Positions 20 to 63,844 of a DNA stretch of 64,000 nt are shown here, one piece after another. The DNA is taken from IMG/VR virus record IMGVR_UViG_3300017785_009958, one strand, 5' to 3'. A program made the position numbers and the translations under genes. The stretch's first letter is position 1; each line of letters begins with the position of its first letter. The notes beneath the pieces are model-generated. The model was not told the DNA's origin. It did no database searches and saw nothing but the letters and a program-made list of their open reading frames with translations. Source of the DNA: an uncultured virus (IMG/VR IMGVR_UViG_3300017785_009958). Its lineage: Duplodnaviria; Heunggongvirae; Uroviricota; Caudoviricetes.

Positions 20-925
20 ATGAATAAAGATAGCAAACTAATATTTGAAGCGTATTTAACAAAGAAACCTGTATTAAATGAAGCTCCAATATATGGACCA
101 GGAGATTTAGACTATACTAGCGACATAGAAAGTGCTCCAGGCGGTGGATATGGTGTAGGAACTGCAGCAGCAAAAGAAGGTAAAACGAAAACAGAAATTG
201 CCAACCGTATTCTTAATGCTGTCAAAACAAAACTTTTTAAACCTGCAGCACATACAATTGACGGAAAAGAATACCAACTCTACTATCCTGGTAGCAAAAT
301 GAAGTTTAGAACGGAACTAGAAAATTTAATTAAAAATGAACTTAAAATAGGTGGTACAGCAGCAAAATATACAGCGCGAGTAATTGACAACCTACTTAAC
401 GTCCTGCGTGTTGATGTTGAAGGTGGCGCTGCGGCATCACCCGTACAAGTTAAGAAAGCTATTGACACAGGCGTACAAGATAAACCAATAACAGGTGATG
501 GTACTGCGCAACCCGCCACTTCTCAAGCTACAGCAAACGCTTTCGTAAAGAATCCTATGGTACGCTTTATTAAAGAGTTTATGCCAATTTTTGTTGAGCT
601 ACCAGATGAAATTACAATTTCTGGAAAGAAAGATTTTTACGAGTCAGATGAACTTCAGAACGAAGTTAAAGAAGCTATTACAAGAGCTTACGATGAAACA
701 AAAGCTAAGGATAAAGAGCTTATAAATGATTTTATCGATTCATTAAAGCATAAAAATAGTTATACACCACAATCAGAAGCCAAGCAACAAGAAGGTGAAG
801 GCACAGGAGAAGAGCCTACTATTGACGAATATCCAGAAGGTGATGATGTATATACTGCAGCTAAGCAAGAATTTGGATTAAGACAGGCACCAGTCGACAA
901 GGGTAATTTTAGTTACGGTGATTAA
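20..925 (+). CDS. Hypothetical late (probably virion/internal) protein
   Basis: 301-aa ORF; TAAATA at 7-12, 7 nt before the ATG; N-terminal KLIFEAY..VLNE resembles prohead-protease-cleaved leaders; acidic low-complexity C-terminus. Confidence 0.6.
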   Translation: MNKDSKLIFEAYLTKKPVLNEAPIYGPGDLDYTSDIESAPGGGYGVGTAAAKEGKTKTEIANRILNAVKTKLFKPAAHTIDGKEYQLYYPGSKMKFRTELENLIKNELKIGGTAAKYTARVIDNLLNVLRVDVEGGAAASPVQVKKAIDTGVQDKPITGDGTAQPATSQATANAFVKNPMVRFIKEFMPIFVELPDEITISGKKDFYESDELQNEVKEAITRAYDETKAKDKELINDFIDSLKHKNSYTPQSEAKQQEGEGTGEEPTIDEYPEGDDVYTAAKQEFGLRQAPVDKGNFSYGD

Positions 926-1658
926 TAGCTTTACAGTTATATTTTTTCCAAGGTAATGTAATTTTATATGAAATCGGGTCTATATACCCCGCATCTATAA
1001 AGCCTTTTATTCTTAAAGAGCACGCAGTACATTCACCGCAAGCCTGCTCTTCTCCCTCATAACAAGTCCATGTCTTACTGAAATCTACACCTAATTTAAT
1101 ACCGAGTTTTATAATTTCTTCCTTAGATTTATCGATTAATGGTGCTTGTACTGATATTTTATTTCTACGATTCAAAGCTGATACATTATTAATTTGCTCC
1201 AGAAATTCTTCACTACCATCCCAGAACCCCGCAACGCTATCAGCTTGAGCAGCACCATGAAAAACCGTGCTAGCCCCAGCGTTCTCTGCTATTGCTAGTG
1301 AAATACTAAGAAGCATTAAGTTTCTGTACGGGACATAGTTTACCGTCTGCGGGTCACCCATTACATCTTTAGCCTTAGCCACAGCAATCTTAGTATTAAG
1401 AAGTGAAGAGACCTCGCAAATACTCTTAAAAAACGGTAAATCTATCCACTTATACTCGACAGGTACTTTAACCGATTCAACTTGTAAAGCAGCGCAGTTA
1501 AGCTCTTTGTCCTTGTGCTTCTGACCGTAATTGTAACTGATTGCTATAATTTCGTCATACCGACTCGCAGCTAAATGTAACAGTACAGAGCTGTCCATTC
1601 CCCCGGAAATAGGTACTACTGCTTTACTCGACTGGTGCTTCTTCGCTTGGCGCTTCAT
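909..1658 (-). CDS. queC: 7-cyano-7-deazaguanine (preQ0) synthase QueC
   Basis: SGGMDS PP-loop, YGQKH, YVPYRN, and the C-terminal Zn motif TWTCY...CGECTAC. Confidence 0.95.
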   Translation of the reverse strand: MKRQAKKHQSSKAVVPISGGMDSSVLLHLAASRYDEIIAISYNYGQKHKDKELNCAALQVESVKVPVEYKWIDLPFFKSICEVSSLLNTKIAVAKAKDVMGDPQTVNYVPYRNLMLLSISLAIAENAGASTVFHGAAQADSVAGFWDGSEEFLEQINNVSALNRRNKISVQAPLIDKSKEEIIKLGIKLGVDFSKTWTCYEGEEQACGECTACSLRIKGFIDAGYIDPISYKITLPWKKYNCKAINHRN

Positions 1659-19770: not shown

Positions 19771-20412
19771 TTAATTCTGCGCAAACTCAACAAACTTGTA
19801 AAACTCAGCTCGCGAATTATCATTATTATCCAAGAACGCTCCAGACATTCTAGCTGTACGCATCGTTGAATCATGTCTAATACCACGATTAGAGCAACAA
19901 GTATGATTAGCTTCAATCATTACGGCTACCCCATTATTCTTTTCACATACTAGATCAATATGCGCATGAATTTGCATAGTAAGGTTTTCCTGTACCTGCG
20001 GACGGCGAGCAAACCAATCAACAATACGATTGAGCTTGCTTAGACCAATAACTTTACCTTCCTTCGAAGGAATATATGCAACATGAGCTACACCAGTAAA
20101 AGGTGCATGATGATGTGAACAAAGCGAAGTCAATTTAATATTATTTTGACAAACCATGCCATCATATTGATCAATATTATCAAAAGCTGTAATCTTCGGT
20201 GGCTTACTATAACAACCCCATGCGAAGTCTTCTACGAAGGCCTTAGCCACGCGATGTGGGGTATTATCGCTGTTAGGATCATTTCTCCAATCATAACCTA
20301 ATGCATCCATGTAAGCTTCATAAGCCTTAGATGCCCTTTCAATTATTTGTTCTCTTTCTTCTTGTGTATGAGGATGATTATGATTAGCGAAAGCGAGTTT
20401 TACTTTAGACAT
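19771..20412 (-). CDS. folE: GTP cyclohydrolase I FolE
   Basis: TPHRVAK, SLCSHH, GLSKLNR, RRPQVQE, H.C...RG. Confidence 0.95.
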   Translation of the reverse strand: MSKVKLAFANHNHPHTQEEREQIIERASKAYEAYMDALGYDWRNDPNSDNTPHRVAKAFVEDFAWGCYSKPPKITAFDNIDQYDGMVCQNNIKLTSLCSHHHAPFTGVAHVAYIPSKEGKVIGLSKLNRIVDWFARRPQVQENLTMQIHAHIDLVCEKNNGVAVMIEANHTCCSNRGIRHDSTMRTARMSGAFLDNNDNSRAEFYKFVEFAQN

Positions 20413-20460
20413 ATCTACGATTATATGATAAGATGTAACGAGATCAACATAAATAATTAT

Positions 20461-21642: not shown

Positions 21643-21720
21643 CAGTTGATTTTTAAAAAAATATCCTTATAATAATACAGGATATAGAAAAGACAGTTAC
21701 TACACATTTTTTGTTGTTAG

Positions 21721-21749
21721 TTGATATAGTAGTTAACAAGGTATATAAT
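21721..21749 (+). promoter_or_regulatory. Sigma70-type promoter of queD, representative of about 12 similar ones
   Basis: TTGATA-N17-TATAAT then 6 nt to ATG; similar layout before gp43, uvsX, folE, the DpdA-like gene, 13625, 60028 and the PRT gene. Confidence 0.75.
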
Positions 21750-21755
21750 AAAAAT

Positions 21756-22418
21756 ATGAAATACGAGAGTACAAAGATAATTGAATTAGGTAGCTGTGCA
21801 TTTAGACAATGGAAAGCTGATAGTCATTGCAAATTTATACATGGATATAGATTAGTAGCTAAATTTTGGTTTGCATGTAATTATTTAGATGAAAAAAATT
21901 GGGTAGTAGATTTTGGTGGGTTAAAGGGTCTTAAGCAAGTTCTAGAGAAACAATTTGATCATACATTATGTATTGCAGCAGATGATCCTTTGCTTGAAGT
22001 GTTTAAACAGCTACATACAACCGGTGGATGTGATTTGAGAGTTATGTCTAAAGGTGTCGGAATTGAAAGAACCGCAGAATGGTGTTTTGATGTAGCTGAT
22101 GGACATGTAAGAGGCATTACAAATAATAGATGCTGGGTCGAAAAGGTAGAAGTATGGGAACATGATAAAAATTCTGCTATTGTTTCTTATAGTACTACAG
22201 CTGAACCTCAACAATCTGGTGAGACGATTGCAACAACAATACAAGCACCAATAAATCAAGTTAGAGACTTTTTAGAGGATGTTGCAGAAGAGACGGGTGT
22301 GAATGTTTCAAATATTCTCAAAAATGTACCTCCAGCAGAGCCTCAGGCTGCACGTGTAGGTAATAAGATTACAACAGGTTATTCTAATTTATTTGGCGGT
22401 ACTAGCTGGGGTCAGTAA
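21756..22418 (+). CDS. queD: 6-carboxytetrahydropterin synthase QueD with C-terminal extension (start re-called at 21756)
   Basis: SHCKFIHGY, WVVDFG, FDHT, VEVWE; TTGATA-N17-TATAAT 6 nt before ATG. Confidence 0.88.
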   Translation: MKYESTKIIELGSCAFRQWKADSHCKFIHGYRLVAKFWFACNYLDEKNWVVDFGGLKGLKQVLEKQFDHTLCIAADDPLLEVFKQLHTTGGCDLRVMSKGVGIERTAEWCFDVADGHVRGITNNRCWVEKVEVWEHDKNSAIVSYSTTAEPQQSGETIATTIQAPINQVRDFLEDVAEETGVNVSNILKNVPPAEPQAARVGNKITTGYSNLFGGTSWGQ

Positions 22419-24293: not shown

Positions 24294-24302
24294 TATAGAC
24301 TA

Positions 24303-25043
24303 ATGAGCGACCAGACAATATTTCTAAGCGATGATAAACTCTTCTATACACTAGAGGGCGAAGGCGAATACGTAGGCCATCCTTCTGTGTTTATGCGCCT
24401 CTCAATGTGTAACTTAACATGCAAAGGCTTTGCATCTGCAGATTCACCTAACGGTTGTGATAGTTTTATTAGCTGGTCGGTAAAAAATAGAATGACGTTT
24501 GATGAGATCTTTGAGTATATGTCACAAAACAGGTATAACTGCTATCTAAAAGACGGCGCTATTTGGAAAATTACTGGCGGTGAACCGCTTATTCAACAAA
24601 ACAAGCTTCTAGAGTTAGTTAAAGCCTTTAAAGATCGATATGGATTTATTCCGAAAATTGATTTTGAAACAAACGCAACAATATTACCGGCAGCAGAATG
24701 GAGAGAGAAATATAACGCAACTTTTACTACATCACCCAAGCTGAGTAATAACGGTGATCCAGTTGAAAAAAGATATAAGCCTGAAGTATTAAAATGGCAT
24801 GCGCAAAACAAGTCAGGGTTTAAGTTTGTAGTTAATGGTGAGGATGAAGTTAGGGAAATATTGGAAAAATATGTATATGATTGTTTAATACCCATTGACC
24901 GTATTTGGCTTATGCCTTGTTGTGGCAGTAGGGATGAACATACCGAAAAATGCCCTATTGTTGCTGATTTATGCAAAAAATATAATTTTAAGTTTAGTCC
25001 GAGATTACAGCTTGTAATTTGGAACAAAGCTCTTAAAGTATAA
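24303..25043 (+). CDS. queE: 7-carboxy-7-deazaguanine synthase QueE (radical SAM)
   Basis: FYTLEGEG...F.R...CNLTC...CD, ITGGEP, ETN, SPKL, FKFVV, PRLQ. Confidence 0.92.
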   Translation: MSDQTIFLSDDKLFYTLEGEGEYVGHPSVFMRLSMCNLTCKGFASADSPNGCDSFISWSVKNRMTFDEIFEYMSQNRYNCYLKDGAIWKITGGEPLIQQNKLLELVKAFKDRYGFIPKIDFETNATILPAAEWREKYNATFTTSPKLSNNGDPVEKRYKPEVLKWHAQNKSGFKFVVNGEDEVREILEKYVYDCLIPIDRIWLMPCCGSRDEHTEKCPIVADLCKKYNFKFSPRLQLVIWNKALKV

Positions 25044-25044
25044 C

Positions 25045-25785
25045 ATGAGAATTGCAATATCGGGTACGGCATGTCAAGGTAAGTCGACTTTTATAAATGA
25101 TTTTATTAAATATTGGCCTGCATATAGTCGCTCGCAGGAATCATACAGGAAAGTTCTTAAAGACGAAAAACTTAATATTAATAAAAAAGTTGATAAAGAT
25201 GGTCAATGGAAGATTTTAAATTGTCTAATTGATGATATTCAAAAAACAGAAAAAGGAGATAAGATTATATTTGATAGATGTCCGCTAGATAACCTTGTAT
25301 ATTCATTATGGAGTGAAGAAAAGCAAACATCAGATATTGATAAAAAATTTATTGATAAATGTATACCGCTTGTACAAGAGAGTATGCGTGCAATTGATAT
25401 TATTCTCTTTATACCTATTACAAGGGCTGCACCGGTTAAGCTTGAAATAAAAGAGAATAGAGAGCTTGATAAGGAATTTATTGAAGAGATAGATAATATT
25501 TTTAAAGCTATAGCACGTAATTTAATGTCTAAAGGAGTCTGTCCATTTATGAAAGAAGATGATAGACCTCCTATGATAGAAGTCTTTGGTAATCCTGAAC
25601 AACGTATTGAGATGTGTAAGCTTTATATTGATAATCAAGGAGATCTTATAGATGAAGGAAAAAGTATTCTTGATGCAGATAACTTAAGCAAGATGGAACA
25701 ACTTTTAAATATGCAGAAAGGCATTTTAAAAGATGAAAAATTAGAAGCGGCTATTGCAAATAGAATCATTACTAGCCATAAATAA
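25045..25785 (+). CDS. P-loop nucleotide-kinase-like protein (AAA_28/dNMP kinase-like)
   Basis: ISGTACQGKST Walker A; FDRCPLD; immediately follows queE. Confidence 0.7.
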   Translation: MRIAISGTACQGKSTFINDFIKYWPAYSRSQESYRKVLKDEKLNINKKVDKDGQWKILNCLIDDIQKTEKGDKIIFDRCPLDNLVYSLWSEEKQTSDIDKKFIDKCIPLVQESMRAIDIILFIPITRAAPVKLEIKENRELDKEFIEEIDNIFKAIARNLMSKGVCPFMKEDDRPPMIEVFGNPEQRIEMCKLYIDNQGDLIDEGKSILDADNLSKMEQLLNMQKGILKDEKLEAAIANRIITSHK

Positions 25786-25789
25786 TAAC

Positions 25790-26704: not shown

Positions 26705-26708
26705 TTAA

Positions 26709-27428: not shown

Positions 27429-27457
27429 TTCTTTTATTTATACTAATATATCTGAAT

Positions 27458-29004: not shown

Positions 29005-29007
29005 TTT

Positions 29008-29610: not shown

Positions 29611-29628
29611 TTCTACTGTAAGTTAAAA

Positions 29629-43894: not shown

Positions 43895-44352
43895 TGATTC
43901 CATTAAATAAAACAGATAAGTATAGGCAAGGTCTTTTTAGACCAAGAAACACATCAAAATATGTTGGACGTAATCCACCTGTTTATAGATCGGGTTGGGA
44001 ATTAAAGTTTTTTAGATGGTGTGACGAGAATACTAATGTCCTTGAATGGGCCAGTGAAGCAATTGTTATACCGTATATTAACCCTATCGATGGTAAAGCT
44101 CATAGATATATTACCGATGGGGTTGTTGTAATAAAAGAAGCGGATAAGGTTAGTAAATATATTATAGAGATAAAACCAAGCGATCAGTTGTTACAGCCTG
44201 TTGCAGGAAAAAAGAAGAATAGTACTGTCATTTATGAGAATAAACGATATATACAGAATATGGCTAAGTGGAAAGCAGCTAAAACCTGGTGTGACAAAAG
44301 AAATTACAAATTCTTGATTTTGACAGAAAAGGAATTAGGTCTAAATAAATAG
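43894..44352 (+). CDS. gp4: Head completion nuclease (gp4-like)
   Basis: QG.F.P.N..KY.G, YRSGWE..F..WCD, W.SE...IPY, EIKP, N.AKW.AA, ILTEKEL. Confidence 0.88.
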   Translation: MIPLNKTDKYRQGLFRPRNTSKYVGRNPPVYRSGWELKFFRWCDENTNVLEWASEAIVIPYINPIDGKAHRYITDGVVVIKEADKVSKYIIEIKPSDQLLQPVAGKKKNSTVIYENKRYIQNMAKWKAAKTWCDKRNYKFLILTEKELGLNK

Positions 44353-46237: not shown

Positions 46238-47734
46238 ATGTCAAAACAAATTCGTCCTACACAGGCTTACATCGATGAGTCTCGCGCGAAAGTATTGCTC
46301 GAAAAATGGGGTCCAGTATTGGATTACTCTTCGAACAATGTTGCCGCGATTGAAGATGATCACACTCGTTTGAACACCGCCATCCTTTTGGAAAACCAAG
46401 AGAAGTGGTGTTTCGAAGCTAGCAACGTCGCTGGTGGAACCCCCGGAGTATTCAGCAATGGCCAAATCAATGCTGGTGCCTTCGGTAATCAGTTCCCTTC
46501 CCAGAATGACAGCGCTTATGCTCCTAACGATTCGCGTCTTCCGAAGATTCTAATCCCGATGATCCGCCGTACGTTCCCTGAGTTGATCACTAACGAAATC
46601 GTTGGTGTTCAGCCCATGAGCGGTCCTGTAGGTCTCGCTTTTGCTCTACGTTATAAGTACGAAGGTACTGCTCTCGGTGCTACTAATGCAAAAGGTCTTG
46701 ATGGCTCTCTAGCCTCAGGAGCTCTCGCTGGTGGTCCTCAGAGTCAGTCCGACGGTGCCGAATTAGGTTACCAATACCTCGATTCACGCTTTACTGGTGT
46801 TTCTTCTGCTGCCCTCTCGGGTAACAGTTTCTTCTCCGTAAAAGCTCAGGATCAAGGTGTTGCTCAGTTGCTAGCCAACTTTGAGTTAACCTCAAACATT
46901 CCCCAGGTCGTAGTTAGCTTCGAAAAGACAGCCGTTGAGGCTGGTACTCGTAGGCTCGCCGCCCGCTGGTCTGTTGAACTCGAGCAGGATCTTAAGAACA
47001 TGAACGGCATTGATATCGATACCGAACTCACCAACGCTATGTCGTATGAGTTGCAGGCCGAAATCGACCGTGAAATGATCATTCGTATGATCCAGACAGC
47101 CCTAAACGCTGGCTTAGGAACAGGCTTCTCAGTCTGGTCCCCTGCCTCCGCAGACGGCCGTTGGCTCGTTGAGCGCAATCGCGACTTCTATCAGAGACTA
47201 ATTGTTGAAGCTAACAGAATCGCTGTCCGTAACCGCCGTGGTTCGGCAAATTTCATTGTGGCAACACCTCGTGTGTGCGCCATTCTTGAGATGCTGCCCG
47301 AATTCCAGTGGGTTCCGGTCCAGGGTAATGTTAACACACAACCCGTTGGCGTCGCCAAGGTAGGTTCACTTGCTGGTCGTTTTAACGTATACCGCGATAC
47401 ACGTACAGAAGCACAGGCTGAAGCTAACGCCGGAGGAAACTTCGGCGGTAACGGTGGGTTCCCCGCCGGTACAACACGCACAACCCGTCTCGAGTACGCT
47501 CTCCTTGGTTACAAGGGTCCGGAATTCTACGACACTGGTATCATCTATTGTCCGTATATTCCGGTAATGGTTCAGAGAACTATTGGTCCTAATGATTTTG
47601 CTCCTCGTGTTGGTCTATTAACCCGTTATGGCGTTGTAGATAACATCTTCGGTGCAAATCTTTATTACCACGTAATTATCTTGACCGGTCTCGGTGTTGC
47701 GTTCCAGCCTGGAACACAATCAGTCTACTTCTAA
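46238..47734 (+). CDS. gp23: Major capsid protein (gp23)
   Basis: LLEKW.PVL, ILLENQ, LIPMIRR, VGVQPMSGP.GLAFALRY, EQDLK, EIDRE, YCPYIP, F.PRVG..TRYG. Confidence 0.97.
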   Translation: MSKQIRPTQAYIDESRAKVLLEKWGPVLDYSSNNVAAIEDDHTRLNTAILLENQEKWCFEASNVAGGTPGVFSNGQINAGAFGNQFPSQNDSAYAPNDSRLPKILIPMIRRTFPELITNEIVGVQPMSGPVGLAFALRYKYEGTALGATNAKGLDGSLASGALAGGPQSQSDGAELGYQYLDSRFTGVSSAALSGNSFFSVKAQDQGVAQLLANFELTSNIPQVVVSFEKTAVEAGTRRLAARWSVELEQDLKNMNGIDIDTELTNAMSYELQAEIDREMIIRMIQTALNAGLGTGFSVWSPASADGRWLVERNRDFYQRLIVEANRIAVRNRRGSANFIVATPRVCAILEMLPEFQWVPVQGNVNTQPVGVAKVGSLAGRFNVYRDTRTEAQAEANAGGNFGGNGGFPAGTTRTTRLEYALLGYKGPEFYDTGIIYCPYIPVMVQRTIGPNDFAPRVGLLTRYGVVDNIFGANLYYHVIILTGLGVAFQPGTQSVYF

Positions 47735-48257: not shown

Positions 48258-49178
48258 TTATTGCCGTACAGTCTTCGGAAAATACTTAAACTTATCCCAC
48301 ATAGCATGATTCTGTTTTAATAGCTCTTGGCTATTAGCTCTAATAGGATTAATGTCAATACCGCCTCGTCTAACATATAGGCATGATACCATCAGTTCTT
48401 CAGGTTTAACTAAATCATATAACCGTTTGTATATAGTCTCACAAATCTCTTCATGAAAATGACATTCATCTCTAAATGAGACAATGTACTGTAATAACGA
48501 GGTTTGGTTAAGCTGATAAGGCCCTTTATAATGAATATAAACATCCCCCCAATCCGGTTGAGATGTGACCCTGCAATTACTCTTTAATAGGGCTGAATGA
48601 AAGCGTTGTACTTTATTTGAGTCACCTTCTGTCCAACCGAGCAAAGAAGGATCTTCCTTATAACCGCGAGATTTAATTGACGTAACGTCTATATTATTTT
48701 CCAAAGTCGGATAGTCAGCGGTGGCAAATAAAGGCGGATAATACATCGCATCATCAATAGCTTTTGTAAGCTTAACACAGACTCTAACTTCTGTTTCTAG
48801 TAGTTTAGATAAATCATTTTCCATGACTGCTTCAAGCTGCTGTAATACACTAATAATATTGCCTTGATATGTCTCCATATTAAACGAATTCATATAGAGC
48901 TTAATAGACTTTGATTCAACGATATATTTGTTAGTGGCCGGATATACAACCTTAGCAATAGCAGCAATAGGCATACCATCTTGTGTTAAGCAAGATACTT
49001 CATAAGCATTCCAAATATCATAGCCACAAAACGGAGGATTATCATCAGAAATATCTAAATGCTTTCTATTGTTCTGCCTTGGCTCACGAACCAAAAGAGA
49101 AGGATCATATGTGCATTTGTACCCAGTTATTCTACCAAGATGCTTTGATATGTTACTGTTATCTAATTGCGTATTCAT
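48258..49178 (-). CDS. queF: NADPH-dependent preQ0 reductase QueF (bimodular type)
   Basis: D.WNAYE, QueF motif VESKSIKLY.NSF, catalytic KSNCRVTSQPDW, FHEE, RRGGIDINP. Confidence 0.93.
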   Translation of the reverse strand: MNTQLDNSNISKHLGRITGYKCTYDPSLLVREPRQNNRKHLDISDDNPPFCGYDIWNAYEVSCLTQDGMPIAAIAKVVYPATNKYIVESKSIKLYMNSFNMETYQGNIISVLQQLEAVMENDLSKLLETEVRVCVKLTKAIDDAMYYPPLFATADYPTLENNIDVTSIKSRGYKEDPSLLGWTEGDSNKVQRFHSALLKSNCRVTSQPDWGDVYIHYKGPYQLNQTSLLQYIVSFRDECHFHEEICETIYKRLYDLVKPEELMVSCLYVRRGGIDINPIRANSQELLKQNHAMWDKFKYFPKTVRQ

Positions 49179-49737
49179 TAAGTTTTATTTTAATCGCTTC
49201 CATTCGTTCTTCAACTGTTCCTTTTAAAATAGTTACCTTACCTTTTAATCTTTCATCAGATAACCAAAAGTTTTCATACTTATCAATAATTGCATCTCTA
49301 AATTCCTTATTAATACTTCTCTCACCATCATCAACTAACGGAACATCATGCGGACTTGGATAAAAGATATGATCATATTTGTTGATATAGTTTACATAGT
49401 ACATTAATCCTAAGCTATTAGACACAGGAAAATCATTCAGTCTGTCACGAGCAAAATAACTCGTAAATATCATTCCATCCATTATACAACGGTCATGCAA
49501 TATACCTTGAAATCCAAATCCTTTATAATTATAAAATAAATTCTCAAACTCTTTGTTAAGAATTAAAGTCTGAGTTATATCATTTGCACCTGCCTCGTTA
49601 ATATCCACCCCATGCTCGCGTTTAATTAGTCTCGTGACTTCATCAATATAGCATAACTTCGAACCATAATACTCTTTACATTTCTTTAAAAGAGTAGTCT
49701 TACCCGAACACTGAGGACCTGTAAATGTAAATATCAT
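49159..49737 (-). CDS. P-loop NMP/dNMP-kinase-like protein (AAA_28)
   Basis: FTGPQCSGKTTL, DRCIMDG, YDHIFY, DDGERS, GTVEER. Confidence 0.72.
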   Translation of the reverse strand: MIFTFTGPQCSGKTTLLKKCKEYYGSKLCYIDEVTRLIKREHGVDINEAGANDITQTLILNKEFENLFYNYKGFGFQGILHDRCIMDGMIFTSYFARDRLNDFPVSNSLGLMYYVNYINKYDHIFYPSPHDVPLVDDGERSINKEFRDAIIDKYENFWLSDERLKGKVTILKGTVEERMEAIKIKLNEYAIR

Positions 49738-49904
49738 TTTTTAAGTATTTTAGCTGAATATTCTAACTCAATGCCATATAAAAGTTCTTTTAATGTTTTT
49801 ACTTCTTCACGAAGAACACGATTTGTTTGTTCAGATGCTTCTAGTTTTTTCTGCAAAGCAGTCTTACTTTCGGTTACTCGTCTATACCAATGCATTAAAG
49901 ACAT
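49734..49904 (-). CDS. Small coiled-coil protein, 56 aa (absent from ORF track)
   Basis: MSLMHWYRRVTESKTALQKKLEASEQTNRVLREEVKTLKELL...; fills the gap and its stop overlaps the kinase ATG. Confidence 0.55.
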   Translation of the reverse strand: MSLMHWYRRVTESKTALQKKLEASEQTNRVLREEVKTLKELLYGIELEYSAKILKK

Positions 49905-49906
49905 CT

Positions 49907-50254
49907 TTATTTACCCCACTTACCATTATATACTATTTCTGCAATAATGCCATACACTGCAGAATCTCTAAATGCATCCATAACTGGTTCGTTTGCAGAG
50001 CTCATTGCTTTTTTCTTTAAAACTAAATTAATTAAGCGCTGAATTTTATCATTAAGACGAACCACAATAGCGGATATTGCAGCAAATTTATCTTCTTGTT
50101 TTACTAGATCAGAACCAAGAGAAATATTACCAGGACCGTAATCAAACTGTTTCTTACAAAATGTCTCATATAATTCAGTCTGTATTTTCTGAAACTCTTT
50201 ACACGTTTCTGGAAAATTTTTTTCTACATATTTAATGGCATCCTCTTTATTCAT
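49907..50254 (-). CDS. DUF1599 / nucleotide-modification-associated domain 1 (Nmad1) protein
   Basis: F.KKQ.DYG..N...R..DK..RL.NL...EP..D.F.D...Y. Confidence 0.75.
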   Translation of the reverse strand: MNKEDAIKYVEKNFPETCKEFQKIQTELYETFCKKQFDYGPGNISLGSDLVKQEDKFAAISAIVVRLNDKIQRLINLVLKKKAMSSANEPVMDAFRDSAVYGIIAEIVYNGKWGK

Positions 50255-51210
50255 AATCTCACTCCGTAATTCACTTTATTTAAATTTAACGAACCGAGAT
50301 TGCAACCACCTGCATAACTAATTGCACTTTGAAGATCTTGCTTTATTTCTTGAAGTTTTTCTTGATACGTAAAAGTATCAGTGTCCATAAGCTTCATTGT
50401 ACCTTCAATATTTTTCTTTTCAATTTTATTATGTACACTGGCAGATCCAAAATATTGCTTGAACCGTCTCCCGCTTGCATCTTTAACAAGAGGTGCGGGG
50501 CTATCTGAGCATGCAGCAAATATAGAACCGCACATCACCATATTAGCGCCTGCAACTAATGCCTTAGCAATATCACCATTACTACGCACACCGCCATCCG
50601 CAATGATAGGAATATTTTTATCTTTTGCACACTCCATAATGCAACTAAACATCGGATAAGTAAATCCTGTCTTGTCTTTTGTTGTGCATGCATATCCGCC
50701 GCCAATACCAACCTTTACAGCATCAGCTCCAGCATCATGCAAATACTCTACACCTTGAAATGATGCAACATTACCAGCAATAATTTTAGCAGACGGCAAT
50801 ACATGTTTAATATGCTTAATCTGATCTGCTACTTTTAAATGGTGACCATGCGCAACATCTATTGTGATGAAATCGACCTTCATCATGCTTTGCCCAATGG
50901 CCGTTAATATATTCTTATCTTTATGCTGTATACCAATGCTTATAGATATGACATTAAATTTACGCGAATTTGCATGCCGTACAAAACTTTGTATATCATT
51001 ATCAAACCGGTGCATAACATAGAAATAACCGTGTTTATCCAAAAGCTCGCATGTGTTCTCATCAATACAGCACTTCATATTAGCAGGAAGAACTGGTAGC
51101 TTAAAATCATATCCGCAGAATAATACGTTTGTATCTATCTCTGCTCTCGACTTTATTGTATTAAAATTAGGCTTGAGAAATACATTCTCGTAATGTAGAG
51201 ATATATCCAT
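50251..51210 (-). CDS. guaC: GMP reductase
   Basis: PANM, MHRF, TIDVAHGH, IAGNV, KVGIG.G..CTT...TG, IADGG, GDIAKA, Y.GSAS, DLQSAISYAG. Confidence 0.92.
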   Translation of the reverse strand: MDISLHYENVFLKPNFNTIKSRAEIDTNVLFCGYDFKLPVLPANMKCCIDENTCELLDKHGYFYVMHRFDNDIQSFVRHANSRKFNVISISIGIQHKDKNILTAIGQSMMKVDFITIDVAHGHHLKVADQIKHIKHVLPSAKIIAGNVASFQGVEYLHDAGADAVKVGIGGGYACTTKDKTGFTYPMFSCIMECAKDKNIPIIADGGVRSNGDIAKALVAGANMVMCGSIFAACSDSPAPLVKDASGRRFKQYFGSASVHNKIEKKNIEGTMKLMDTDTFTYQEKLQEIKQDLQSAISYAGGCNLGSLNLNKVNYGVRL

Positions 51211-51211
51211 T

Positions 51212-51784
51212 TTAACGTTCTAAAATTTTATATGCTGTAAAGAAGCTTTTCCAGAGGTCTAAAGCAGTATCACGTAGTGCACCATATACACCGTCAAGAG
51301 TCATGCCCTCAATGCTTACTCCCTGACTCATTAATATATCTCCCTCATCTACACCCGGTGTAACTCTATGTATAACACAGCCTGCAAGTTTATAGCCCTC
51401 TATAAAGGCTCTTTCTTGGGGGTTATATCCCTTAAGCGCGGGAAACTTATCAATAAGACCAGGATGTAAATTATATATTTCATACTGTTCACAAATTTCT
51501 TTTGGAATTATTCTTAGATATCCGTGTAATGTAATTATAGGATTATCATACCTTGATAAAACATTTTTATAGTCTATTAATTCAGGTTTAGGCGGAATAT
51601 GACACCAGCAATGCGTCATATTAAGTTTTGTTGCTCTAAATGTTGTCAGTTCGATAAGCTTTTTATTTACTCCATCTGTATTATGTTTATTGTGAATTAC
51701 GCAATCAGGATATATTCCTAACGCATTACTAAGATCATAAATCTCAGTACCTGTTTGAGAGAAAAATGTTACCCAAGGTCTCAT
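51212..51784 (-). CDS. PurN-like formyltransferase, probable DpdN (preQ1 formyltransferase)
   Basis: FSQTG, TLHGYLRI, NLHPGL, GCVIH.VT.GVDEG; adjacent to a DpdA-like gene and in the same operon as queF. Confidence 0.8.
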   Translation of the reverse strand: MRPWVTFFSQTGTEIYDLSNALGIYPDCVIHNKHNTDGVNKKLIELTTFRATKLNMTHCWCHIPPKPELIDYKNVLSRYDNPIITLHGYLRIIPKEICEQYEIYNLHPGLIDKFPALKGYNPQERAFIEGYKLAGCVIHRVTPGVDEGDILMSQGVSIEGMTLDGVYGALRDTALDLWKSFFTAYKILER

Positions 51785-52593
51785 CTACGAACAATCTTCT
51801 TAAACATTGTAGTATTATACTTTACAAGTTCAAGCTGACCATCAGTAAAATTATGTGCAATAAGGTCAGCTAATTTTGTTGACGGTTTATTATCTAGTCC
51901 ATAATCAGCATCGTACTTTAATCCATGTATAGCAGCAACAACGGGATTACTGGTATCGCAACTAACAATATTGTGAATATTTCTATCAACATAAAATCTA
52001 AATTCTTTAGCTAAAGAGCAACCAAGAAGATGATGAGGTTTGGTCCAATTCCATACCCCATTACTTATTAAGTCATTTATAAAGCGCTGACGACCGGTGC
52101 ACCACTTTTCGAGATGTGTCCCGCCTTCTCCAGTAATTTGATAGTAACTAAAATCAAAACTAATTGCAATCATATCCGCATTATCTGACATAAACTTATA
52201 GCACTCTTTTAATTCATGCCAAGTCTTGCCCTGTACAGCGCCTATCGCTTTTGTCAAAAAGCTACTCTTAATATCTTTTGTATATACATCAAAGGCTCTA
52301 AAGCTTTGTATTGTGCCTTGAGTATCCTCTAATACATCTGGAACAATAAACATATTAGGTTTAATTTCCTTAGCTTTTATCCAAAATTCTCGACTATCAA
52401 AAGCTTTGCCTAATTCAAAAATAGAGTTATCAAGCAGCACCTCTCTATCATAAGTAAACCTAGCAGATTTAAAAAAATCGTTATATTGAGGATATTGATC
52501 TAATAAATGTACAAGACAGTAATCAAAATCGTTATATTCTTTGGAAAAATCAAGTATCGATACAGGCGACTCATGTGATACTTTCATTAGCAT
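51781..52593 (-). CDS. TGT-fold deazaguanine transglycosylase-like protein (DpdA3-like)
   Basis: LLDNSIFE, IVPDV, GAVQG, HLLG, SCDTS match TGT/DpdA catalytic-barrel motifs; heads the modification operon. Confidence 0.7.
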   Translation of the reverse strand: MLMKVSHESPVSILDFSKEYNDFDYCLVHLLDQYPQYNDFFKSARFTYDREVLLDNSIFELGKAFDSREFWIKAKEIKPNMFIVPDVLEDTQGTIQSFRAFDVYTKDIKSSFLTKAIGAVQGKTWHELKECYKFMSDNADMIAISFDFSYYQITGEGGTHLEKWCTGRQRFINDLISNGVWNWTKPHHLLGCSLAKEFRFYVDRNIHNIVSCDTSNPVVAAIHGLKYDADYGLDNKPSTKLADLIAHNFTDGQLELVKYNTTMFKKIVRR

Positions 52594-52629
52594 ATCTGTA
52601 TTATAAATGTAAATAATAGATAGATCAAC

Positions 52630-55551
52630 ATGAATTATCCAAAATATTACGGTAATTATCTAGGTATAGTTGTACAGAATAATGACCCGCTTAAGAGAGG
52701 TCGCGTTAAGGTGTTTGTGCCACATATATCGCCTACCGTTTACAGCAAATGGGTTGAAACGGGTAAGGACAAATGTTTTAAGTTCTTAGGCAAAAATGTA
52801 TATAGCGACCTTTCAGATGTTCATGATGAACTTAAAAAAATTCTTCCCTGGGCTGAAATTGCGGCTCCTCTTGCCGGAGAAAGCGGTAGCGGAAGATTTA
52901 ATGCACATTTTAATATTGGTACAATTAGTGATAGCAGTAATATAAAGCAAGCTTTTAGTAACGCAGATAATTGTGAAATTGATTACTCAAAAACAAATGA
53001 GTATAGTCAAAATTTAGATAATATTGGTGAAAAGCCAGGCTTTATATATGATGTTTCATACTATAAGTTAAAAGATGCATTTGCAGACCCGCAAGAAAGT
53101 AATGCAAATAATGTAAACATTTTTACCTATAATTATACTCCAGAATGTTACAGCAATTGTGCAAAAGGAGCATTTCCCGTTATAAATGTTGGTGCGCATG
53201 TGTGGGTGTTTTTTAATAATGGTGATCCACTTAAGCCTGTAATCTTTGGAACCTCTTACGGGTCGGATGATTGGGGAAGTATTTTTGGTATTGCTAATAC
53301 TGAGGGTACGCAATTATCTGCAGCGCCAGATGAAGGTATGGATTATCCAGGTGCGTTTGAAAATGCAGCGCTGTCCGGTAGCGAAGTCGGTTATGACATT
53401 AATACAGACACATACCGTAACAAATATGTGTTAAATCAAAAAGGTGGTACTATAGCTATTGTTAATACTGACAACCGTGAAATGCTTAAATTTACTCATT
53501 ACTCCGGTTCATTTAAAGAATTTAATAACCATACTACAATTGAGCTTGCCACAAATAATGATCAAAAGCTAGTTCTCGGCGATTCATTTCTTACTATCCG
53601 AGGATCAAGAAATGAATTTACACAATTTGATTATGACTGTATTGTTAAAGGTGATTTGTATAAAAAAGTTGGTAACCTAGATAGCGAGCTACATAAGCAG
53701 TGGCGCGAAACTGCAAGAGAGATTGCAGATATAAGACAATTATTCGATATACAGAGAACGGGCAGCTATAGTAGCGTCGGTGGTTCAGCGCGCACTGCAC
53801 CGGGTCAATCTAGAAGCGGTACACCGGATAAGTGCCCGGTTTGTAATAAGGATACAAACAAATATAATGCTGTTAATACATCGTACAAGAAAACATATGT
53901 AAATAAAACTAACAGAACAACAGCAAATTCGCAAGGTGACTTTACATTTGCGCAGACTATTCTTCCTGGTGTTGGTGGAGGTAGAGTGCCAAGTGTGCCT
54001 AACCTTGGAAACCTTGCCACGCCTCTAAGAGTTTCACCTACCGATGGATTAGGTGGATCTGTAGATGGAAGTACAGGAATGAATAGACCGGGAATGATTT
54101 TTGGTGAAACATGTCCCGCATGCGGTGGCTCAGGATTAAGCCCAAGTTCTCAAGGTGGAAAATGGTCTACAGAAACAAGAAAAGCAAACCTACAAAACAT
54201 TTTACAACAAAAAATTTGTGAATTAGCTGACATTGAGAAAAAAATGGGCATTGGTGGAAGTGAAATTGTTAATATTACAAAGCATAAAGTTGAAAATATT
54301 GGACAAGCAATGAATGATTATGGTGCTGTTCGAATAGATCCAAAAGGTAAAATGTATGTGTCGGATGTTAAGGTCGCAAAGTATGGTACGTATTACAACA
54401 GAACACCGACACCTCTTGTGGAAATGGTTCAGGTGCCTGATCTCCCCTCTGGTAATTACACTCTTAATGTTGGTAACAAATACAATTGTATGGTAGGCGC
54501 TGGTGGTATGAATATGAAGTCTTACGGTGCAGTTAATATTAGCGGCGCAATGACAAACGTTGCAGGTTCTCAAGTTAATATTTCTAGTGAAAACGAGGTT
54601 ACTATTGATGGAGGTAAGCGTATTAATATTACTGGCGATGTTGTAAGTCTTAAGCAAAGAGATAAGAAGCAAGTTGTTGTTGAAGGGTCTCTGGGTATTA
54701 CGAATAACGCTGCGGTTGCAGGCGGCTTGCATGTTGAGGGTGAAGGTACATTCAATCATATTACAATGCCTAAACAAATTATGGCTACCGAACAAGCACA
54801 AGTCTTCGGTGCAGCTGCAACAGATCAATCAAACGGTAACGGTAAAATTATAGGCTTCGGTGCACCGTTAGCAGATTACCCTACACAGGCAACAGATCCT
54901 AATGGTGGTTTATATTTTAGTCCTGATGTACCGGGTGCTCCAGCGTTTATAGGAATTACTGATATGAAGCTTACGATTGGGCGTATTAGAGGTTCAACTA
55001 GTACAGGTCCAGGCGGCGGTACATGGGATGTGATAGGATACATACCCATTGGTGGTACAACAACATTAAATCCTGCGTTTGGGTGGGTTGCAACAAATGA
55101 GGCTAAAAATGCAGTTGATGCTGGTCCTCCTGTACCTGTACCAATGCCTAATACTGTGCCAATACCCATATATGGTGGCATAGCGGAGGGCGCCGGGACA
55201 GGTCTTGTACCATCTGCTGCTGTAGATTCATTTATCTATGGAACAGGTACACCAACTATCAGAGGCGCTTTCACAAAGAGCGGAGGCGGTACAGCAGACG
55301 GGGGTGTTATACAATCAATAGCTATTAATAATCAAACAGCAGCTAGAATGCCTTTAGCTTTATTCGGTACCGGGCGTCAAGCAGATTCATTTGTATTTGA
55401 ACCGCATAGTCATTTATTCCCTGCACCTGCAATGACATTAACTGATACAAATATGGCTACAAGAGAAAAAGCGGTTGGAAAAGATGCTCCTATTAATGCT
55501 GAACCGCCTGTAAATGCTCCGACATTAACGAACGAACCAGTAACTAATTAG
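52630..55551 (+). CDS. Baseplate hub / tail spike protein (gp5-like), 973 aa, no lysozyme domain recognised
   Basis: Y.GIVVQNNDP..RGRVKV.VP...LPWA OB-fold; VWVFF..GD...P; H.SGS..E; beta-helix repeats; CxxC insertions; C-terminal PHSH. Confidence 0.75.
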   Translation: MNYPKYYGNYLGIVVQNNDPLKRGRVKVFVPHISPTVYSKWVETGKDKCFKFLGKNVYSDLSDVHDELKKILPWAEIAAPLAGESGSGRFNAHFNIGTISDSSNIKQAFSNADNCEIDYSKTNEYSQNLDNIGEKPGFIYDVSYYKLKDAFADPQESNANNVNIFTYNYTPECYSNCAKGAFPVINVGAHVWVFFNNGDPLKPVIFGTSYGSDDWGSIFGIANTEGTQLSAAPDEGMDYPGAFENAALSGSEVGYDINTDTYRNKYVLNQKGGTIAIVNTDNREMLKFTHYSGSFKEFNNHTTIELATNNDQKLVLGDSFLTIRGSRNEFTQFDYDCIVKGDLYKKVGNLDSELHKQWRETAREIADIRQLFDIQRTGSYSSVGGSARTAPGQSRSGTPDKCPVCNKDTNKYNAVNTSYKKTYVNKTNRTTANSQGDFTFAQTILPGVGGGRVPSVPNLGNLATPLRVSPTDGLGGSVDGSTGMNRPGMIFGETCPACGGSGLSPSSQGGKWSTETRKANLQNILQQKICELADIEKKMGIGGSEIVNITKHKVENIGQAMNDYGAVRIDPKGKMYVSDVKVAKYGTYYNRTPTPLVEMVQVPDLPSGNYTLNVGNKYNCMVGAGGMNMKSYGAVNISGAMTNVAGSQVNISSENEVTIDGGKRINITGDVVSLKQRDKKQVVVEGSLGITNNAAVAGGLHVEGEGTFNHITMPKQIMATEQAQVFGAAATDQSNGNGKIIGFGAPLADYPTQATDPNGGLYFSPDVPGAPAFIGITDMKLTIGRIRGSTSTGPGGGTWDVIGYIPIGGTTTLNPAFGWVATNEAKNAVDAGPPVPVPMPNTVPIPIYGGIAEGAGTGLVPSAAVDSFIYGTGTPTIRGAFTKSGGGTADGGVIQSIAINNQTAARMPLALFGTGRQADSFVFEPHSHLFPAPAMTLTDTNMATREKAVGKDAPINAEPPVNAPTLTNEPVTN

Positions 55552-63382: not shown

Positions 63383-63844
63383 TTAATCTAGTCTAACGGA
63401 TTCCCAAGGAAAGTCAAGCCAAACATTGTCGTCAAATTCTTTAATATGAAAATTAGGAATAAATTGTGTCGACTTTTTTATGTAAAGGGTTGCAAATTTA
63501 AAGTTTGTAAACTCACATGATTCAAAATAATCTTTTGCAGCTAGAAGTGTTTTACCCTTGTCAGAAAGATCGTCAATAACAACTACTCTTTTTTCTCTAA
63601 ATTCTGAATTAAATTTAAACCCCGGTATCTGACCAAATTCTAACTCCCCTGCTGTAAATTCACTATAAGATTTGATAGTAAAATTAACAACTGGTATGTC
63701 ATATATGTAAGAAATAATAGTACCAGGAACTAAGCCACCGCGACCAATGGCAGCTATAGCATCACACGGACCAATTAAATTAGCTAATTCTTTGCAGTCC
63801 TTATTAACCTGCTCCCAAGTTAAGCTGATACGTTCAGGCATCAA
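63383..63844 (-). CDS. Purine phosphoribosyltransferase (Gpt-like)
   Basis: RGGLVP, VVVIDDLSDKGKTL PRPP loop, ATLY.K, W..FPWE. Confidence 0.85.
   Translation of the reverse strand: MMPERISLTWEQVNKDCKELANLIGPCDAIAAIGRGGLVPGTIISYIYDIPVVNFTIKSYSEFTAGELEFGQIPGFKFNSEFREKRVVVIDDLSDKGKTLLAAKDYFESCEFTNFKFATLYIKKSTQFIPNFHIKEFDDNVWLDFPWESVRLD

Follow-up and report, generated by a model that had tools for sequence, protein, structure and literature searches.

Comparison with known systems supports the assignment of a seven-gene operon, at positions 48258-52593 of the 64-kb stretch of viral DNA analysed here (hereafter the window), to the DpdA3/DpdN/QueF deazaguanine systems, as its genes and their order match those of the published fdPreQ1 cluster of Flavobacterium phage immuto. 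A probability of about 0.5 is given to the following reading of its function: together with folE, queD, queE and queC, the operon would direct the synthesis of preQ1, fdPreQ1 would replace guanine in the DNA, and a (deoxy)guanosine nucleoside or nucleotide, still free, would be the substrate of both exchange and formylation.

Organization of the operon

The operon lies between the baseplate hub and major capsid genes of a T4-like backbone. Its features are the following:

52600..52628, minus strand: sigma-70-like promoter motif TTGATC-N17-TATAAT, whose -10 hexamer ends 6 nt upstream of the ATG that opens the operon
51781..52593, minus strand: DpdA3-type transglycosylase (270 aa)
51212..51784, minus strand: DpdN-type formyltransferase, a PurN paralogue (190 aa)
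50251..51210, minus strand: GMP reductase homologue, GuaC type 2, operon accessory (319 aa)
49907..50254, minus strand: DUF1599-like four-helix protein, probable DpdN partner (115 aa)
49734..49904, minus strand: helical/coiled-coil-like ORF, poorly conserved (56 aa)
49159..49737, minus strand: small P-loop nucleoside/nucleotide-type kinase, constant DpdA3 partner (192 aa)
48258..49178, minus strand: bimodular QueF, preQ0 to preQ1 reductase (306 aa)

The ORF listing, with its translations, agrees with the original prediction of seven abutting or overlapping minus-strand genes: the successive junctions are a 4-nt overlap, a 1-nt gap, a 4-nt overlap, a 2-nt gap, a 4-nt overlap and a 20-nt overlap. 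Six of the gene labels hold (DpdA3-type, DpdN-type, GMP reductase, 56-aa helical, kinase and QueF), whereas that of DUF1599 comes down to look-alikes, with no Pfam match. The promoter-like motif is indeed located before the operon (52628-52600, minus strand), and a transcript starting from it would be almost leaderless, since its -10 hexamer ends so close to the ATG. The exact motif occurs twice in the window versus 0.13 copies expected, its twin (20420-20447) standing directly before folE; promoter-like sites in general show no enrichment in the region (20 observed versus 25.6 expected). Gene conservation was surveyed over 71 unique related loci, each with at least 4.5 kb downstream. The 56-aa ORF, whose coiled-coil Pfam matches are all sub-threshold, is kept in 10 of these loci.

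Enzymes of the deazaguanine pathway

QueF carries both QueF_N (8.4e-34) and QueF (5.3e-23) domains, scores below the cut-off of TIGR03138 (264 versus 293 bits) and is 46% identical to the QueF of immuto (E 9e-86). Its translation includes ESKSIKLY, HFHEE and the Cys of NCRVTSQPDW, which we take to be the QueF motif and the catalytic Cys, so that its earlier description as a QueF with an intact motif stands. Other genes of the window related to deazaguanine or purine metabolism are the following:

909..1658, minus strand: QueC (PF06508, 1.4e-57)
19771..20412, minus strand: FolE, GTP cyclohydrolase I (PF01227, 5.9e-48)
21711..22418, plus strand: QueD-like (PTPS) protein, 235 aa (PF01242, 4.6e-16)
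24303..25043, plus strand: QueE-like radical-SAM protein (Fer4_12, 6.5e-06; a weak assignment, made by context)
25045..25785, plus strand: second AAA_28 kinase paralogue, abutting QueE (AAA_28, 1.2e-08; phrog_2107, 2.5e-13)
63383..63844, minus strand: purine-type phosphoribosyltransferase, PRTase (PF00156, 1.8e-14)

The product of the first gene of the operon matches phrog_19058 (4e-55) and is 43-46% identical to the DpdA3 of immuto (45%) and of Campylobacter Firehammervirus CP220. Its label as a TGT/DpdA-like protein, which is without Pfam support, is confirmed by its fold: the best Foldseek matches of its AlphaFold2 model (pLDDT 96.4) are TGTs (E 1e-8, TMq 0.70). It shares with bacterial DpdA/DpdB and phage DpdA1/DpdA2 systems the TGT fold and a conserved Asp in an HLLG...D(T/S)S segment, and D55, E60, D86, R168, H188 and D213 are invariant in its family. 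However, as judged from its sequence, it is a bare TIM barrel of about 270 aa devoid of the zinc-binding CxCxxC segment, shorter than the 436 aa of the DpdA chain solved in 7ui4. Members of its family tend to be acidic (median pI 5.5, n=73), which is weak evidence for action on nucleotides.

The second protein, originally described as PurN-like, does match PF00551 (5.7e-16). When checked as DpdN versus PurN, it proved to be of the DpdN type: it misses the PurN equivalog cut-off (51.7 versus 150.1 bits) and matches the DpdN of immuto over its full length (43% identity, E 2e-52), including the N-terminal FFSQTG loop. N105 and H107 are invariant and D146 nearly so. DpdN is a paralogue of an enzyme that has a phosphoribosyl substrate.

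The DUF1599-like protein (model pLDDT 92.3) does not match any Pfam family, even with the threshold relaxed to E<=10. It matches phrog_1485 (3e-12), 28 of its 30 Atlas look-alikes fall in clusters with some DUF1599 members (30-59% in the rows shown) and it gives weak tblastn matches to proteins annotated as DUF1599. It had been proposed to be a pyrophosphatase-like dGTP drain (DUF1599/Nmad1), but no similarity to MazG-type pyrophosphatases is detectable. Instead, it co-varies with the formyltransferase (both in 53 of the 71 loci, neither in 15, discordant in 3) and is fused in frame to DpdN in three loci (L102, L107 and L110). It is therefore a probable partner of DpdN rather than a demonstrated dGTP drain.

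The GMP reductase label is upheld by PDB 1ypf (4.3e-76) and by a score just under the NCBIfam NF003966 cut-off (338.3 versus 344 bits). The expected linkage of GuaC to dpdA3 in relatives, a test set beforehand, fails: the gene is present in 28 of the 71 loci and in none of the four other DpdA3-type phage genomes (records of immuto, CP220, phiST and BSTP12). Judged by this distribution, GuaC is an optional add-on, outside the core steps. It probably converts surplus or released guanine nucleotides to IMP, thereby serving an AT-rich genome.

Comparison with immuto and CP220

The cluster of immuto has the same order DpdA3, DpdN, kinase and QueF (45, 43, 28 and 46% identity, respectively), which bears out the original view of a deazaguanine operon linked to formylated preQ1. 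The two differ by the insertion here of GuaC, the DUF1599-like gene and the 56-aa ORF, and by a PRA-PH-type pyrophosphatase (3e-10) encoded two genes upstream of DpdA3 in immuto and not in this phage. According to excerpts of PMC10516641, the DNA of immuto contains 345,000 fdPreQ1 per 10^6 nt, without any detected dG peak. CP220, whose modified base is dADG, encodes DpdA3 followed immediately by a kinase of the same family, and shares both kinase paralogues with this phage, but lacks DpdN, QueF and GuaC. There, an HD phosphohydrolase fused to another, second kinase precedes DpdA3. Replacement of G is reported there as complete for the CP220-type system and for all three DpdA3 phages tested, whereas bacterial DpdA and phage DpdA1/DpdA2, which insert preQ0 after replication, modify only part of the G, 30% at most (same excerpts of PMC10516641).

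A kinase as constant partner of DpdA3

The operon P-loop protein matches AAA_28 (4.9e-12) and phrog_2107. Its full-length profile matches are to thymidylate kinase (PDB 2pbr, 1.5e-6), NadR ribosylnicotinamide kinase (PDB 6gye, 2.9e-5) and deoxynucleoside kinases; the P-loop and R83 do not vary, and 90% or more of 41 sequences keep D82 and C84 of the DRC motif. Its labelling as a P-loop kinase is thus sound, and its predicted fold is that of a small-molecule kinase, not of a DNA motor. DpdA3 is followed by this kinase in all 71 loci. As synteny within the T4-like clades is inherited, these loci are not independent, and independence can be claimed for about five lineages only. The predicted co-occurrence also extends outside the clade: a kinase-type P-loop gene adjoins DpdA3 in immuto, CP220 and phiST (CGPG_00066; AAA_18, 9.4e-7, barely above the Pfam cut-off with 29.8 versus 29.4 bits), and a gene matching phrog_761 (9.5e-16) adjoins the DpdA-like gene of Bacillus phage BSTP12. 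Among 50,697 phage records, the kinase family has matches in 17 of Campylobacter phages, in 4 of Flavobacterium immuto and in no others, and the paralogue in 8 Campylobacter phage records only. Minimal cassettes consist of DpdA3, kinase and QueF only, a composition that speaks against the nucleotide-level reading. Fusions join DpdA3 to DpdN (5 protein clusters), kinase to DpdN (3) and DpdN to kinase (1). The word 'kinase' occurs 0 times in the available text of the immuto paper (PMC10516641).

Exchange on free nucleotides or on DNA

The kinase linkage and the fusions between DpdA3, DpdN and kinase make a nucleotide-level route a serious reading. From gene content, homology, synteny, fusions and folds, the following model can be drawn, in which all substrates and the order of the steps are predicted. 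With dG, dGMP or the ribo counterpart as substrate, DpdA3 would replace guanine by preQ1. DpdN, aided by the DUF1599-like protein, would formylate the aminomethyl group. Phosphorylation of the product would fall to the small kinase and to the paralogue encoded next to queE, and its final incorporation to kinases of the host and the B-family polymerase of the phage. The pre-replicative route originally proposed thus retains the kinase-DpdA3 linkage and gains the fusions, but loses the GuaC linkage, the DUF1599 pyrophosphatase and the dGTP-destroying enzyme: MazG, HD and PRA-PH enzymes have no match in the window, nor in the nearest large relative record (157.9 kb, 74% complete).

The published model, proposed by Cui et al. 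(excerpts of PMC10516641), is that the DNA is replicated with ordinary dGTP and that DpdA3 then exchanges every guanine of the DNA for preQ1 or formyl-preQ1, DpdN formylating either the DNA or the free base and the P-loop protein being an ATP-using helper like DpdB or serving an unrelated task. That no dGTP-destroying enzyme was found in the clade (the window and the nearest large relative record) speaks for it, as do the TGT fold of DpdA3 and the best PDB sequence match of DpdA3, the DNA-guanine transglycosylase 7ui4, albeit weakly (E 0.37). To our knowledge, every characterised TGT-family member acts on a polynucleotide (tRNA or DNA), which also counts against a nucleotide-level route. Furthermore, bacterial DpdA requires the ATPase DpdB for insertion into DNA (PMC10164549, in part), so that a P-loop neighbour alone does not imply a nucleotide kinase. 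However, the partner of DpdA3 is of the thymidylate-kinase/NadR-kinase type while DpdB is ParB-like (fold from the same part of PMC10164549), and it is fused to the formyltransferase, not to DpdA3. The excerpts of PMC10516641 also report that tests of DpdA3 in E. coli yielded no modified DNA and that ADG nucleoside was detected in infected cells. Three lineages encode nucleotide phosphohydrolases in the vicinity of DpdA3 (PRA-PH-like in immuto, MazG-like in phiST, HD with kinase in CP220), and a small acidic barrel without zinc subdomain that exchanged 100% of the guanines of finished DNA would be unprecedented. Exchange on DNA is considered possible but less likely than exchange on free nucleotides.

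Two other readings draw on the toyocamycin pathway, in which a PRTase and a GMP-reductase homologue act on deazapurine nucleotides. A PRTase could join preQ1 or preQ0 to PRPP, DpdN could formylate the ribonucleotide, and kinases and the phage ribonucleotide reductase could yield the dNTP, DpdA3 mopping up residual G in DNA or having another role. The ancestry of DpdN, a class I ribonucleotide reductase encoded 3.5 kb from the operon and the purine-type PRTase, which matches proteins annotated as xanthine or xanthine-guanine PRTases, are consistent with such salvage; a PRTase is also encoded inside the que cluster of immuto, and in a Synechococcus phage the homologue overlaps with an annotation for a queuosine gene. 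But the family is found in three of five DpdA3-type records, being absent from those of CP220 and BSTP12, the gene lies outside the operon, 10.8 kb away, and the universal linkage and DpdN fusion belong to DpdA3, which makes this route improbable. Alternatively, GuaC could 2-deaminate a deazaguanine nucleotide, as proposed for ToyE, and GuaC-carrying phages would hold a 7-substituted 7-deazahypoxanthine, not fdPreQ1. Its place inside the operon, with DpdN before it and the DUF1599-like gene after it, its sub-threshold score and an Asp at the second Glu of the Bacillus anthracis GMP reductase HEESPG in 31 of 31 distinct phage copies fit this proposal. Nevertheless, GuaC is missing or located elsewhere in close relatives with the same operon, is 45% identical to ordinary GMP reductase with an intact Cys-Thr-Thr loop, and GMP reductase genes are carried by many phages without deazaguanine genes; such deamination is very improbable.

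Comparison with pre-replicative systems

The hydroxymethyl-dC of T4 is made before replication by a dCTPase, a dCMP hydroxymethylase and a dNMP kinase, and the dZ system of S-2L, with MazZ, PurZ and DatZ, is likewise described as pre-replicative. Neither has a key enzyme homologous to that of this phage, where no enzyme excluding the canonical dNTP was found in the window or in the nearest large relative record; the shared logic would be a modified mononucleotide, its phosphorylation by a phage kinase and its polymerisation. A modified dGTP has been suggested before: Crippen et al. reportedly put it forward in 2019 for Campylobacter phages, and a passage of PMC6884629 cites them for this proposal. 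The genes found beside the system in this phage hint that the swap may take place on free nucleotides, before the DNA is copied.

Organization of the operon and promoter-like motifs

The operon consists of seven minus-strand ORFs (52593–48258) that encode, in order, DpdA3, DpdN, GuaC, a 115-aa DUF1599-like protein, a 56-aa product, a 192-aa kinase and QueF. Their successive junctions are a 4-nt overlap, a 1-nt gap, a 4-nt overlap, a 2-nt gap, a 4-nt overlap and a 20-nt overlap, in agreement with the abutting or overlapping genes of the original prediction. The features discussed with the operon are as follows.

52630–55551, plus strand: gp5-like baseplate hub gene flanking the operon
46238–47734, plus strand: gp23-type major capsid gene on the other flank, with one small ORF
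20420–20447, minus strand: promoter-like TTGATC-N16-TATAAT, immediately ahead of the folE start at 20412
25045–25785, plus strand: second AAA_28 kinase (246 aa), starting 2 nt after the queE-like gene
63383–63844, minus strand: purine-type phosphoribosyltransferase (PRTase), several matches of which are annotated as xanthine or xanthine-guanine PRTase

The promoter-like TTGATC-N17-TATAAT predicted ahead of the operon was located at 52628–52600, the end of its −10 box lying 6 nt from the operon ATG. As a class, promoter-like sites show no enrichment there (20 vs 25.6 expected); the exact motif has two matches in the 64-kb window, against 0.13 expected, and no third one. As these two copies precede the operon and folE, they suggest that folE and the DpdA3 operon are under shared control. 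Both leave almost no leader. A Megablast search of 50,697 phage records with the operon gave no match.

The transglycosylase DpdA3

The protein encoded by 51781–52593 (270 aa) has no Pfam match even at E ≤ 10 and no NCBIfam match, and phmmer against the PDB returned nothing useful, so that a profile search was needed. It matches phrog_19058 (4e-55) and is related to homologues from the Flavobacterium phage immuto (44.7% identity, 6e-57), from Campylobacter phages (43–46%, about 1e-50) and, more remotely, to DpdA3 of phiST (28%, 2e-3). At E ≤ 1e-5, it matches 14 Campylobacter and four Flavobacterium immuto phage records and no others; according to the main text of Cui et al. 2023 (PMC10516641), these are DpdA3 phages. 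Its AlphaFold2 model (pLDDT 96.4, pTM 0.93) has a predicted TGT-type TIM-barrel fold: each of the best 50 PDB matches listed by Foldseek is a tRNA-guanine transglycosylase (E 1e-8 and TMq 0.70 at best). The TGT/DpdA-like label is therefore retained on the basis of phrog_19058, the kinship with DpdA3 of immuto and of the Campylobacter phage CP220, and the fold search. D55, D86 and D213, candidate catalytic aspartates, are invariant across 73 DpdA3 sequences, and D213 aligns to the Asp of SIDS in the DpdA structure 7ui4, in a weak match (E 0.37). The protein is a bare barrel devoid of the zinc segment and is acidic, this being a global pI that is too weak to decide DNA binding.

Some DpdA3 homologues are larger: P0129 (419 aa) has a C-terminal extension of ~160 aa without any Pfam match, P0146 (586 aa) an N-terminal extension of ~317 aa, and P0182 (475 aa) carries a NUMOD3 motif. 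These extra domains may correspond to other modifications of the preQ1 amine or to homing-endonuclease insertions. In Rhizobium phage RHph_I1_18 (L133, 3962–5230), the 422-aa EVB91_073 weakly resembles DpdA3 in its N-terminal part (26% identity, 93% query coverage, E 1e-2), and its C-terminal DUF3310 part matches two PHROGs, a "nucleotide kinase" (2e-6) and a "kinase" (5e-5); its gene adjoins that of a dUTPase and is near that of a GTP cyclohydrolase I. EVB91_073 may be a transglycosylase-kinase fusion. When single representatives of distant DpdA3 lineages were used as queries on viral contigs, three of the four scans found no relative and the fourth found one short locus.

DpdN, QueF and the preQ1 pathway

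The 190-aa DpdN belongs to PF00551 (5.7e-16) and shares 43% identity with immuto DpdN YP_010114479.1 over residues 2–182 (E 2e-52). Its NLHPGL and VDEGD segments align to PurN structures; N105 and H107 are invariant and D146 is conserved in at least 90% of sequences, an Asn-His-Asp set that we take to be the formyltransferase catalytic residues. Against the PurN equivalog TIGR00639, residues 76–158 alone align, with a score (51.7 bits) far under the cut-off (150.1), and dpdN is co-encoded with dpdA and the folE-to-queF genes. The predicted PurN-like formyltransferase is thus of the DpdN type and does not reach the GAR transformylase cut-off. QueF is bimodular (QueF_N 8.4e-34, QueF 5.3e-23) and scores 264 bits with TIGR03138, under its cut-off of 293. 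Its translation contains ESKSIKLY, NCRVTSQPDW and HFHEE, presumably the QueF motif and catalytic-Cys segments, as had been predicted. Elsewhere, the window encodes QueC, FolE, QueD-like and QueE-like proteins, the second AAA_28 kinase, the PRTase, a class I RNR and a B-family polymerase.

Other genes were noted in the window. A plus-strand cluster at 23340–33982 encodes an NAD-dependent epimerase/dehydratase, two GT2 proteins and a HAD-nucleotidyltransferase fusion; this sugar-nucleotide/glycosyltransferase cluster may serve the modification of glycans or of DNA with sugars. The plus-strand ORF 35240–35827 encodes a DUF366 protein (PF04017, 2.1e-25) that matches no PHROG. Two plus-strand ORFs located among replication and structural genes, one for a SegE-type GIY-YIG endonuclease (13185–13598) and one with a TnsA-like endonuclease domain (43894–44352), are probably mobile homing-type genes.

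Kinases and their linkage to DpdA3

The 192-aa protein matches AAA_28 (4.9e-12). Residues G7, G12, K13, T15, R83, R140 and R178 are invariant and D82 is present in at least 90% of sequences. Phmmer against the PDB gave nothing useful; a profile search was needed and gave full-length matches to thymidylate kinase (2pbr, 1.5e-6), to NadR ribosylnicotinamide kinase (6gye, 2.9e-5) and to 8puu (1.6e-3); deoxynucleoside kinases are also among the matches. The P-loop and DR-type motif together with these matches uphold the kinase label, and the protein is predicted to be a nucleoside/nucleotide-type kinase with a small-molecule kinase fold.

Linkage was examined in 125 viral-contig loci, reduced to 94 distinct sequences, 93 of them with a full DpdA3, of which 71 have at least 4.5 kb downstream. 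The kinase gene is found in all 71, QueF in 69, DpdN in 55, the 115-aa protein in 54, GuaC in 28 and the 56-aa ORF in 10. Three loci (L007, L015 and L016) carry about 1.1–1.2 kb of extra DNA between the 115-aa gene and the kinase gene. Because the 71 loci have a common ancestry, they are not independent observations, and separate lineages count for more. Four other phage lineages (immuto, CP220, phiST and Bacillus BSTP12) have a kinase-type gene next to DpdA3, which makes about five lineages in all. CP220 encodes an HD-AAA_33 fusion upstream besides the kinase beside DpdA3; the phiST neighbour, CGPG_00066, has an AAA_18 match (9.4e-7) just above the cut-off; in BSTP12, a phrog_761 kinase (9.5e-16) adjoins a DpdA-like gene matching phrog_20335 (1.3e-6). 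The co-occurrence run thus bears out the linkage of kinase and dpdA3. In BSTP12 (L132, 390–6692), the genes of QueD, a radical-SAM protein, FolE, the kinase and the DpdA-like protein lie directly upstream of that of DNA polymerase I; the DpdA-like gene, which has a weak DUF6610 match and is annotated NadR, belongs to a Firmicute-phage version of the DpdA-kinase pair.

Among the 50,697 phage records, the operon kinase matches 17 Campylobacter and four immuto records only, and the second kinase eight Campylobacter records only; the phages with dADG DNA thus have both kinases in common with the window phage.

Gene fusions

DpdA3-DpdN fusions (P0125, P0183, P0391, P0392 and P0396), kinase-DpdN fusions (P0393 to P0395, two of which have precomputed Pfam kinase families) and a DpdN-kinase fusion (P0397) were found among protein clusters, and DpdN and the 115-aa protein form single open frames in three loci (L102, L107 and L110), two of them checked by translation. 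All four types of fusion centre on DpdN, in line with an assembly of several enzymes that work on a single kind of substrate. A further candidate, P0223, is unsupported as a fusion of DpdA3 with a DUF1599-like protein (blastp E 0.055; hhalign probability 1.3%, on a different segment).

GuaC, the 115-aa protein and the proposed dGTP drain

By its sequence, GuaC is a clear GMP reductase homologue, as predicted (PF00478, 4.3e-55; PDB 1ypf, 4.3e-76, with ACTTK aligned to VCITK), scoring just below the cut-off of NF003966 (338.3 vs 344) and below that of TIGR01306 (300 vs 466). In all 31 distinct phage copies, the second Glu of the HEESPG segment of B. anthracis GMP reductase is replaced by Asp (DSP), and the Cys-Thr-Thr loop is retained. 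GuaC occurs in 10/12 loci with DpdA3 at 80% identity or above, in 18/35 at 65–80% and in 0/24 below 65%; in two loci, its gene has moved to a position upstream of that of the hub. No member of the IMPDH/GMPR family is present in the records of immuto, CP220, phiST or BSTP12. GMP reductase genes are found in 76 phage records, and no DpdA3 phage appears among the organism names tallied or the 40 records listed. With 28 of 71 loci and none of these four records, the proposed linkage of GuaC to dpdA3 does not hold; GuaC is optional to the system and should be dropped from the original prediction or made optional in it.

The 115-aa protein has no Pfam match, including PF07659 even at E ≤ 10, and among 120 listed of its 1,583 relatives none has a precomputed Pfam family. 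Its DUF1599/Nmad1 label thus fails the Pfam test and survives as a likeness: 28 of 30 Atlas matches fall in clusters with some PF07659 members (30–59% in the rows listed), and tblastn matches to proteins annotated DUF1599 are weak (31–34% identity, E about 5e-4). The protein tracks DpdN, both being present in 53 loci and absent from 15, with three discordant loci out of 71. Relatives also occur in general nucleotide-metabolism clusters of phages devoid of DpdA3, for instance beside thymidylate synthase in the crAss-like cr108_1. There (L050, 6626–9662), the relative is encoded in one run with a GuaC-like "dehydrogenase", a metallophosphoesterase and thymidylate synthase, so the pairing of GuaC with the DUF1599-like protein recurs in a phage in which the DpdA3 searches gave no match.

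The original prediction viewed Nmad1 as an all-alpha pyrophosphatase. No such relation was detected by hhalign with the immuto PRA-PH-like and phiST MazG-like proteins (probability 0.1–0.2%, single-sequence templates), by Foldseek (no match at E ≤ 1e-3; probability 0.66 for 2p06, the best candidate) or by VIA-align (generic helical matches only, Z ≤ 7.1), and a MazG-like pyrophosphatase is unsupported. MazG, HD and PRA-PH families have no match among the 70 window ORFs or in the nearest large relative (G002, 157.9 kb, 74% complete), and no enzyme removing the canonical dNTP, as in the pre-replicative systems T4 hmC and S-2L dZ, was found in either. Immuto, phiST and CP220 do have pyrophosphatase or HD genes in their DpdA3 clusters, the MazG-like gene of phiST being also noted in the main text of PMC10516641. 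As GuaC is optional, the 115-aa protein shows no pyrophosphatase likeness and no MazG, HD or PRA-PH gene was found, the drainage of GMP/dGTP is unsupported in this clade, and this part of the original prediction, too, should be dropped or made optional.

Closest known system and mechanistic models

In immuto, the genes of DpdA3, DpdN, a "thymidylate kinase" and QueF are in the same order as in the window, with a small ORF between the first two, and those of FolE, a PRTase, QueE and QueD lie upstream. The main text of PMC10516641 reports 345,000 fdPreQ1 per 10^6 nt in immuto DNA and no dG peak. Because the enzymes and their order are shared, the window phage would most likely be another fdPreQ1 phage, with a T4-like backbone.

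The pre-replicative part of the original prediction is partly supported, by the kinase linkage and the fusions, and finds no support in GuaC linkage or a dGTP drain. With a probability of about 0.5, the process can be viewed as follows: base exchange and formylation would take place on a free nucleoside or nucleotide, which would then be phosphorylated. This route is favoured by the linkage and small-molecule fold of the kinase, by the fusions, by the descent of DpdN from an enzyme with a phosphoribosyl substrate and by the bare, zinc-less, acidic barrel of DpdA3. Complete replacement, the ADG nucleoside in infected cells and the lack of DNA modification by DpdA3 when tested in E. coli, all from the main text of PMC10516641, point the same way, and the idea of a modified dGTP had been put forward before for Campylobacter phages (Crippen et al. 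2019, as cited in PMC6884629). At slightly under even odds, DpdA3 would not modify DNA and would be the first TGT-family transglycosylase acting on free (deoxy)guanosine nucleosides or nucleotides, within a metabolon with DpdN, the DUF1599-like protein and two kinases that builds a hypermodified purine dNTP.

The literature states that 7-deazaguanines are inserted after replication (PMC10516641, main text), and in such a model the P-loop protein would assist the transglycosylase at the expense of ATP, as DpdB does for bacterial DpdA according to PMC10164549. This is the main rival; set against the kinase fold and the fusions, we consider it possible but rather unlikely. A salvage route led by the PRTase is improbable. 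The PRTase could recycle released guanine or ribosylate the deazaguanine base, and its family is present in immuto (within the que cluster) and phiST and absent from the CP220 and BSTP12 records. Least credible by far is a ToyE-like role of GuaC, a clear GMP reductase homologue that is optional to the system. The kinase is not mentioned in the main text of PMC10516641, the sole relevant paper found that names DpdA3. Searches of the deazaguanine-phage literature for kinase, dGMP, GMP reductase and dGTP found no paper defining nucleotide-level steps.

Implications

To our knowledge, complete purine replacement in DNA is known in mechanistic detail for 2-aminoadenine only. The gene set itself is already published; the papers found do not discuss the T4-like backbone, the insertion of guaC and the DUF1599-like gene or, most notably, the constant presence of the kinase and the network of fusions. 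Since the kinase is present in 71/71 loci, kinase-type genes occur beside DpdA3 in about five lineages and a chain of fusions connects DpdA3, DpdN, the kinase and the DUF1599-like protein, the pre-replicative model, opposite to the published one, is directly testable with a few purified proteins. If true, it would provide an enzymatic route to hypermodified purine dNTPs and account for the escape of these phages from restriction at every G. With 2,887 DpdA3-family proteins (E ≤ 1e-3) and 1,492 cluster representatives in metagenomes, this biology would be common in nature.
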